DNA of 37,809 nucleotides, taken from contig CAXHJY010000538.1 of assembly GCA_964016885.1 (NCBI GenBank), forward strand, positions 1 through 37,809, written 5' to 3'. The DNA comes from Eledone cirrhosa. Taxonomy: Eukaryota. The notes under the pieces are model-generated. The model worked only from the letters and a program-made list of their open reading frames with translations, was not told the DNA's origin and made no database searches. A program made the position numbers and the translations under genes. This document shows positions 15,608 to 16,479 of the stretch, piece after piece; position 1 is the stretch's first letter, and the number at the start of each line of letters is the position of its first letter.

Positions 15608-16479
15608 TCTGGGTCCCTTAACTGCGGTGGTCTCGAGTGCTGGTGTGGATGACCCTGGCTCTGGAGACGATGCAGCCAGGTCAGCTGTCCCACAATCTTC
15701 TCTGCCATCACTAAAAAATTTTTCTGATCTGCTGCTGCCATCTGTATCTCGTCGGCATGAGCGTGCCTTCTCTTTGTTGGTGCAGCACGCGCGACATCAG
15801 CATACTTCTGGAGCGGCTTATTTCGGCTTAGGCTGGGGCATGTTGCGCGAGTATGATGGGTATAGTTCGTTTGAGACCTAGGGTGGGCGAATCTGCATCC
15901 CATCCCTGTCTCTCCATGCCAGCATGTCCCGTTCTTGAAAAACTTGCACATTACTTGGGGTTTTTTGCTCCCAGTGTCTCGGTGCTTTCTGTTCTTTCTT
16001 TGAACAGTTGTCCACTGGTCTCTCTGCGCTTGGTTCTCCTTCGGAAGGTGATTTCGCTTTTCACCTTTGCCCTTAGCTTGTTGGTTGCCCGGCCTGCCCT
16101 CCCTGCCTGTAGCGGAGGGTATATCATTTTCTTTCAGGTCCGTGCTTGTGCTCTCCTCCTTTTCCTTTTCCCCCTCTTTTTCCTCTTCCTTTTCCCTCTC
16201 CTTCTCCTCATCCCTCCCTTCGGTTTTCTCCTCCCTGAGGACACGGCTTAGCATCGCCATATGAGGCGCTATGATGACATACGCCTTCTCAATTTCTTTT
16301 CTCTTTCTCTCTATCTGTGCCAGGGTCCTCAGAAACCCATGGCTCTTCAGGTTCTCCGCCATCTTTTTGCTTGGTGGAGACCCATCAGCCATAGTCCACC
16401 CCTTGATCAAAACCGCTAGTTCAATCTTCGACCAGTTTCGCTGACTCCTGATTTCACATTTTTCCTGCATGCAGTCCAT
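15526..16479 (-). CDS. ORF1: Myb/SANT (trihelix)-like N-terminus, Glu/Lys-rich linker, CCCH zinc finger
   Basis: 317 aa from ATG. WSKIELAVLI...MAENLKSHGFLRTLAQIERKRKEIEKAY resembles the trihelix pattern (by eye). C-x7-C-x8-C-x3-H at 15883-15948. It overlaps ORF2. Confidence 0.82.
   Translation of the reverse strand: MDCMQEKCEIRSQRNWSKIELAVLIKGWTMADGSPPSKKMAENLKSHGFLRTLAQIERKRKEIEKAYVIIAPHMAMLSRVLREEKTEGRDEEKEREKEEEKEGEKEKEESTSTDLKENDIPSATGREGRPGNQQAKGKGEKRNHLPKENQAQRDQWTTVQRKNRKHRDTGSKKPQVMCKFFKNGTCWHGETGMGCRFAHPRSQTNYTHHTRATCPSLSRNKPLQKYADVARAAPTKRRHAHADEIQMAAADQKNFLVMAEKIVGQLTWLHRLQSQGHPHQHSRPPQLRDPEWPPLTPDQVSYRQPLLAPQKSHQCCC
15712..15721 (-). other. Candidate -1 ribosomal frameshift site (A_AAU_UUU / U_UUU_UUA)
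   Basis: The minus strand reads CAG AAA AAT TTT TTA GTG in the ORF1 frame. The -1 frame is ORF2 and has no stop from here to 12566. Confidence 0.62.

Follow-up and report, generated by a model that had tools for sequence, protein, structure and literature searches.

A Myb/SANT-like domain at the start of ORF1 in an octopod LINE, with a likely -1 frameshift into the endonuclease and reverse transcriptase

The ORF1 proteins of CR1-related LINEs are built from a limited set of modules. In a survey of 448 Jockey-group elements, the ORF1 types given in Table 1 are PHD, RRM, CCHC, Tnp22, esterase and zf/lz only, and shuffling of ORF1 domains is described for CR1 and L2 (PMC4120745). In the text available from each source, a survey of bivalves treats the distribution of CR1 and CR1-Zenon, not ORF1 domains (PMC10294476), and a 2016 review of frameshifting mentions HeT-A, TART and L1, but not CR1 (PMC5009743). 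Myb-type domains are described for other mobile elements: ZF1-Myb of R2 supplies target affinity (PMC11204384), an engineered fusion of the TRF1 Myb to the TRAS1 APE was retargeted by its Myb (PMC2868851), and in Harbinger, Myb-like proteins bind to the element that encodes them and bring the transposase into the nucleus (PMC9710019). The initial annotation of the locus studied here held that an ORF1 combining a Myb/SANT-like domain with a CCCH zinc finger was not known as described. This agrees with the literature searched, in which we found no LINE ORF1 with Myb/SANT plus CCCH (Repbase and Dfam lay outside its scope), and with the survey of Jockey-group elements, which contains no Myb, SANT or CCCH ORF1 in its article or in that part of the supplements that could be covered as text (PMC4120745).

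We analyzed a 37,809-nt stretch of Eledone cirrhosa DNA (GCA_964016885.1, contig CAXHJY010000538.1, positions 1-37,809; hereafter the window). It contains on the minus strand a LINE copy of 4,054 bp with both ORFs intact (12484-16537), which lies between two (TA)n-type arrays, one at its 3' flank (12348-12483) and one at its 5' flank (16538-16656). APE and RT in ORF2, a repeat tail and 5'-truncated copies identify it as an APE-type LINE. We take it to belong to the CR1 group on the basis of the motif Y..RL..L.L.SL..RR, our RT tree having been built without named reference elements. All of its features lie on the minus strand. ORF1 starts at an ATG at 16479 and encodes 317 amino acids plus stop (15526-16479); ORF2 occupies a frame of 1,076 codons from stop to stop (12566-15796), -1 relative to ORF1, in which Pfam places APE at about 15529-14870 and RT at about 13996-13343. 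The copy ends in a 3' UTR and a tail of three 8-nt repeats (12484-12565). It belongs to a family of high depth in the reads or contigs of four runs, and depth climbs strongly toward the 3' end, being about 100-260-fold higher in the 3' bin than in the 5' bin in runs X4 and X6, a ratio that is not a copy number. Also, many contigs align only to the last ~60 bases of the element and then diverge (12546-12553; 84 and 61 contigs in X4, 111 in X6), and such contigs may come from very short copies of the element or from another family, a SINE or a sister, with the same 3' end.

Upstream of ORF1 lies a pyrimidine-rich leader of 58 nt (16480-16537, minus strand), which is present in other copies of the family, as variant rows at 16509 and 16513 indicate. 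Its order of CTAAC, pyrimidine tract, CAG, three bases and ATG resembles a canonical 3' splice acceptor with a branch-point-like CTAAC, and the CAG, 3 bases before the ORF1 ATG, could permit cis- or trans-splicing onto the element RNA.

The initial annotation had read amino acids 14-67 of ORF1 as a Myb/SANT-like trihelix domain. The pattern that it quoted is present at 16440-16279, counted from the ATG at 16479, and the same span is covered by the Pfam match; the domain itself extends over amino acids 14-87 (16219-16440). This region is kept in 15 octopus-type relatives, in line with the conservation that such a reading calls for. Its mean column identity in the family alignment is 44%, R51, Q55, K59 and Y67 are nearly invariant, and 11 of 13 members have a net basic helix 3. 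Pfam names the expected family, Myb_DNA-bind_4, as it names zf-CCCH for the finger discussed below, but each falls under its cut-off. For Myb_DNA-bind_4, with a gathering cut-off of 27 bits, the whole ORF1 frame scores 16.2 bits (E 0.014), the isolated domain 18.2 bits and the relative P0013 19.2 bits. Among isolated domains no other Pfam family recurs; this one matches 6 of 13 (best E 1.1e-4). The hallmark of a trihelix domain is a set of three regularly spaced tryptophans, one per helix. Here W16 is retained in 11 of 13 sequences, helix 2 has no tryptophan and the helix-3 position is occupied by K, R or M, while an additional W28 is found in 11 of 13. Because two of the three hallmark tryptophans are absent, we reject a textbook trihelix and keep the term Myb-like. 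In a sequence-profile search of the PDB, ribosomal S8 came top and the lone SANT-containing protein was RSC8 (E 0.1); kinship of the domain with ribosomal S8 was dismissed, the profile matches being a local coincidence.

An AlphaFold2 model of the domain, built from 13 sequences, contains three helices (residues 18-30, 36-46 and 53-87; mean pLDDT 82), and G-F-x-R-T-x-x-Q coincides with the turn of the modeled helix-turn-helix (HTH). The best matches returned by VIA are TEAD4 (Z 7.1), RAD MYB (Z 7.0, rmsd 2.6 over 58) and GT-1 (Z 6.8), with PHR2, ARR1 and the RSC SANT at Z 6.7. Among the best 50 rows, the majority are Myb, SANT, GT-1, TEA or HTH structures and none is at Z 8, where the tool itself cautions that Z 7-8 is typical of models without a clear match. 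By Foldseek, a Myb domain comes first, RSC second and GT-1 fourth, and no structural match reaches E 0.001. In the ESM Atlas, the top match is a Myb cluster (0.86) and all ten of the best named matches belong to the same family or clan, which we regard as a lead only. The structural check proposed with the initial annotation thus came out in its favor, as the model gives a three-helix HTH whose nearest structures are mostly Myb/SANT, albeit at a moderate best Z of 7.1. What stands of the annotation is a three-helix fold of the Myb/SANT class; the trihelix label, in view of the sub-cut-off Pfam scores and the tryptophans, stands in part. We consider it highly probable that the N-terminal domain of ORF1 has a Myb/SANT-type fold, and such a domain may bind DNA.

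The remainder of ORF1 is simpler. An acidic and then basic linker, noticed in the initial annotation, is present at amino acids 88-177 (15949-16218); it is weakly conserved and mostly of low pLDDT in the model. It is followed by a single CCCH zinc-finger motif, C-x7-C-x8-C-x3-H, found as described at amino acids 178-199 (15883-15948). A looser CCCH pattern appears in 133 of 20,000 shuffles of ORF1, zf-CCCH scores 14.9 bits on the whole ORF1 frame (E 0.026, cut-off 20.5), and CCCH families match 4 of 14 sequences below cut-off. All four ligands are retained in the window element and in P0003, P0004, P0005, P0011 and P0013; in P0006 they are lost and the protein ends early. The closest PDB sequences for P0013 are Muscleblind fingers (E 0.24). 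In the full-length relatives P0004, P0005 and P0013 the order is domain, linker, one CCCH, YAD-type motif, xFL, helix and Q/H-rich tail. The conserved C-terminal helix of the window ORF1 (amino acids 238-275; 15655-15768) lies across the slip site, and its second half would be missing from the frameshifted product.

How ORF2 is produced bears directly on whether the N-terminal domain ever meets the endonuclease. The first methionine of ORF2 (amino acid 101) is downstream of the first APE motif (amino acid 88), and there is no ATG before that motif. The ORF1/ORF2 overlap holds two overlapping slippery heptamers (15712-15721), A AAT TTT (15721) and T TTT TTA (15718), both in ORF1 phase. We examined the junction at 37 of 80 metagenome loci, picked for having upstream DNA: 21 have a -1 overlap, six a +1 relation and three no upstream ORF, while in the other seven ORF2 follows in frame directly after the ORF1 stop, which suggests readthrough. 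Among the 21 -1 overlaps, the strict heptamer occurs 17 times in ORF1 phase versus 3 and 3 times in the other phases. All four same-clade loci with a junction (L002, L003, L004 and L006) place ORF2 in the -1 frame and carry T TTT TTA in ORF1 phase, 3-9 nt into the overlap; the codon-level chance of the shared heptamer is ~2e-10 for five elements, given the conserved Phe-Leu. Our results indicate that the U UUU UUA slip site is a trait of the wider clade and not of the window element alone. Furthermore, the last residues of P0004 and P0005 are SHQ(C/Y), as dictated in the other frame by the APE start of the window element, and no frame-restoring indel common to the family is found at the junction in 12 of 24 indel rows listed from four runs. 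A private mutation of the window copy as the source of the two frames was rejected on the basis of these indel rows, the -1 junctions of relatives and the ends of P0004 and P0005. As for RNA structure past the slip site, no stimulatory fold stands out (z +0.7), a crude pseudoknot is equaled by 3 of 60 shuffles and is not conserved in relatives, and base pairing between the sequence past the slip and the 3' end is weak (9 of 300 shuffles). The fusion to APE-RT put forward in the initial annotation is likely, given the -1 overlap, the lack of an early ATG and the conserved heptamer: a -1 slip would probably yield a Myb-CCCH-APE-RT protein of ~1,300 amino acids. Among distant CR1-group loci (L008-L035, L079), -1 overlaps are also frequent, with the heptamers A AAA AAC, G GGA AAC and T TTA AAC.

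When ORF1 was searched by HMMER against 1.84 billion representatives, 22 matches were obtained, 12 of them with the N-terminal domain, and a profile search contributed three more carriers for a total of 15. The named carriers are hypothetical proteins of Octopus vulgaris and O. sinensis, the rest being ENA or Logan records. The nearest ORF2 proteins comprise three at 63-66% identity and one of Argonauta hians at 54%. In the RT tree, built by quick search from 62 rows and with SH-aLRT supports, the window RT and P0028-P0031 form a five-row group (99) within a 48-row clade (100) that includes L002, L003, L004, L006, P0093 and P0113. Same-clade relatives carry CCCH repeats, though the short piece of L003 shows none; PHD fingers are present in L002, L004 shows a PHD-like Cys pattern by eye without a Pfam match, and the weaker ORF1 matches P0017 and P0020 are PHD-CCCH proteins. 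The ORF1 of L002 (3-2750) has three ~80-aa helical-module repeats, two then followed by PHD-like fingers, and then CCCH fingers.

The Myb-like profile found no match in three forward frames of 80 metagenome loci (best E 0.077) or in the PHD-CCCH ORF1s, an ORF2-based metagenome scan gave no locus of the octopod subfamily (best identity 49%), and the viral contigs scanned contained 0 loci. No sign was found that the domain descends from the helical module at the N-terminus of relatives (profile-profile probability 0.4%). Among the sequences seen, the Myb-like domain is therefore restricted to the octopod subfamily, where the number of ORF1 N-termini behind its absence in relatives is small (a complete one in L004, that of L002, which the contig start truncates, and those of P0017 and P0020). 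Because relatives have CCCH fingers and the Myb profile matches none of them, we conclude that the CCCH finger is inherited from the wider clade, inside which the octopod rows nest in the RT tree, and is not special to the window element; the Myb-like domain looks like a replacement, on these few N-termini, standing in the place of the PHD-type module. A Harbinger element or a host trihelix gene is a plausible donor.

The initial annotation had also supposed that the Myb-like domain directs insertion into (TA)n. TA microsatellite makes up 54% of the window, and all 11 non-TA islands of at least 150 nt are bounded by TA: the studied LINE, a second CR1, a Penelope element, four RTE-like pieces and four copies of one repeat. 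The four 5'-truncated pieces on the plus strand (16659-18250, 18399-18716, 18763-19963 and 21580-23523) we presume to be RTE-like from their general features, and Pfam finds RT or PHD in the three that were scanned. They form two subfamilies ~74% alike, three have (ATG)n tails, and a PHD-like finger follows immediately on the RT core, scoring above the Pfam PHD cut-off in each of these three scanned pieces; an exact tandem duplication of 364 nt occupies 18353-19077. The second CR1-group LINE (9832-12347, plus strand) is degenerate, belongs to the same large RT clade and stands tail to tail with the studied LINE across one TA array. The Penelope element (26789-30273) has RT and GIY-YIG in a 707-aa frame on the minus strand and, by eye, an inverted terminal duplication. 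The repeat copies (1281-1753, 2825-3453, 6351-6979 and 23719-24162), of 444-629 nt, are 84-99% alike and share a start point; they may be a SINE or a truncated LINE end. Elsewhere in the genome, the 3' loose ends of the studied family, among the rows listed, show phase-locked TA in X4 (55 contigs at 12498), X6 (108 and 129 contigs) and X24 (1,815 RAD reads, agreement 0.83, possibly from few loci), and one X4 row (36 contigs at 12495) has no TA alternation. Since phase-locked TA is seen in three runs, the family often adjoins TA at its 3' ends. However, because every element in the window, of whatever clade, sits in TA, a (TA)n context needs no Myb domain, and insertion directed by this domain finds no support here.

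We estimate at about even the chance that the locus is best explained as an intact octopod-subfamily LINE of the CR1 group whose Myb/SANT-like ORF1 start is fused by a -1 slip to APE-RT and acts as a low-specificity tether to DNA or chromatin, not as a reader of (TA)n. In such an element, most ribosomes would yield ORF1p, comprising the Myb-like domain, charged linker, CCCH finger, helix and Q/H-rich tail, which may package the element RNA with the CCCH finger as the likely RNA contact, while a minority would slip and produce the Myb-CCCH-APE-RT protein. We speculate that the domain entered the octopod lineage in exchange for the helical-plus-PHD module that relatives have, and inherited from that module a role in holding the particle on chromatin. 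The (TA)n context may then come from the endonuclease nicking flexible TpA-rich DNA and from priming by the A-rich tail, as would hold for the other retroelements of this genome. Were the domain instead a sequence-specific reader of (TA)n or AT-rich DNA that targets insertions through the frameshift fusion, in the manner of R2 ZF1-Myb, the (TA)n at both flanks of the LINE and the phase-locked TA by the tails in X4, X6 and X24 would be expected, and R2 and the TRF1 Myb-TRAS1 APE fusion offer precedents. We find this unlikely, since TA also bounds the RTE-like, Penelope and second CR1 islands in a window that is itself 54% TA, one X4 row lacks alternation, and the domains are separated by ~80 residues of ORF2 frame before APE plus ~240 of ORF1. 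It is accordingly improbable that an octopod APE-type LINE has captured a trihelix/Myb domain, fuses it by -1 frameshift and aims at (TA)n microsatellites. If true, it would be a natural, convergent counterpart of R2 ZF-Myb targeting and of engineered Myb-TRAS1, with a swappable N-terminal targeting module.

Another possibility, one that we doubt but find conceivable, is that the domain acts chiefly as part of free ORF1p. It would there bind DNA of the element itself (leader or promoter), the element RNA or, in SANT-like fashion, a host protein, thereby controlling expression or nuclear import, and its presence in the fusion would be incidental. Most of the protein made should be unshifted, Harbinger Myb-like proteins behave in a comparable way, and the SANT domains of RSC, DNAJC2, ISWI and MTA1 and the Cdc5 Myb match the model with scores close to those of DNA binders. 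Against this, helix 3 is basic in most members whereas the histone-binding surface of SANT domains is acidic, and no binding site was identified within the element. Very unlikely, in our view, is a three-helix domain that is Myb-analogous only, serving as a structural or oligomerization bundle without binding nucleic acid. Sub-threshold Pfam scores, Z values below 8 and absent tryptophans would suit it, but the sequence profile, language-model features and fold search all give the Myb/SANT class, and G-F-x-R-T-x-x-Q falls just where the modeled HTH turns.

We suggest that the octopod ORF1 is a real, conserved and apparently previously undescribed variant of a known LINE type, the comparison having been made outside Repbase and Dfam. 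Its new feature is the Myb-like domain, the CCCH finger and slip site being already clade-wide. The combination of Myb-like domain and CCCH finger adds to the ORF1 architectures catalogued for CR1/L2 LINEs and represents a lineage-specific swap of a PHD module for a Myb-like domain on a conserved chassis of CCCH and slip site. Because the slip would join the ORF1 N-terminus to the endonuclease and RT, the element offers a direct test of whether ORF1 modules steer the insertion of APE-type LINEs. Moreover, the junctions make a clade-wide case for -1 frameshifting as a route to ORF2 production in many CR1-group LINEs.

These features have counterparts in several known systems. U UUU UUA is the heptamer of -1 frameshifting of the HIV-1 gag-pol type, and the octopod element shares with HIV-1 both the identical heptamer and a Gag/Gag-Pol-like product logic, but has no clear stimulatory hairpin. 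TRAS elements (R1 clade) have a Myb-like region between APE and RT, inside ORF2; they resemble the octopod element in joining a Myb-like domain with APE in a repeat-associated LINE, whereas the octopod copy of the domain is at the start of ORF1. The nearest system is the CCCH-repeat invertebrate CR1-group clade (L002, L004, L006, P0017, P0019, P0020, P0093 and P0113), with which the element shares its RT clade (L loci, P0093 and P0113; SH-aLRT 100), the type of the first CCCH finger, and the U UUU UUA -1 junction with a helix and a Q-rich tail after it, and from which the octopod subfamily differs in its single CCCH, lack of PHD and Myb-like start. With the CR1-lineage LINEs of PHD-type ORF1 described in the Jockey-group survey, it has in common a two-ORF APE-RT organization with a modular ORF1 (PMC4120745). 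The Myb_DNA-bind_4/GT-1 trihelix domains and the PIF/Harbinger Myb-like proteins (SANT/trihelix/MADF; PMC9710019) share with the octopod domain a three-helix HTH with a long third helix; positions 2-67 of PF13837 match the octopod domain weakly and GT-1 is at Z 6.8, but the octopod domain stays under the Pfam cut-off, has lost two tryptophans and resides in a LINE ORF1. An R2 chain is absent from the 50 best VIA fold matches. If the frameshift occurs, the element resembles R2, as that system is described, in carrying a Myb-type domain on the N-terminal side of RT within a single polypeptide (PMC11204384), while R2 is a single-ORF element with a restriction-like endonuclease and one rDNA site and the octopod element is APE-type, two-ORF and high-copy.
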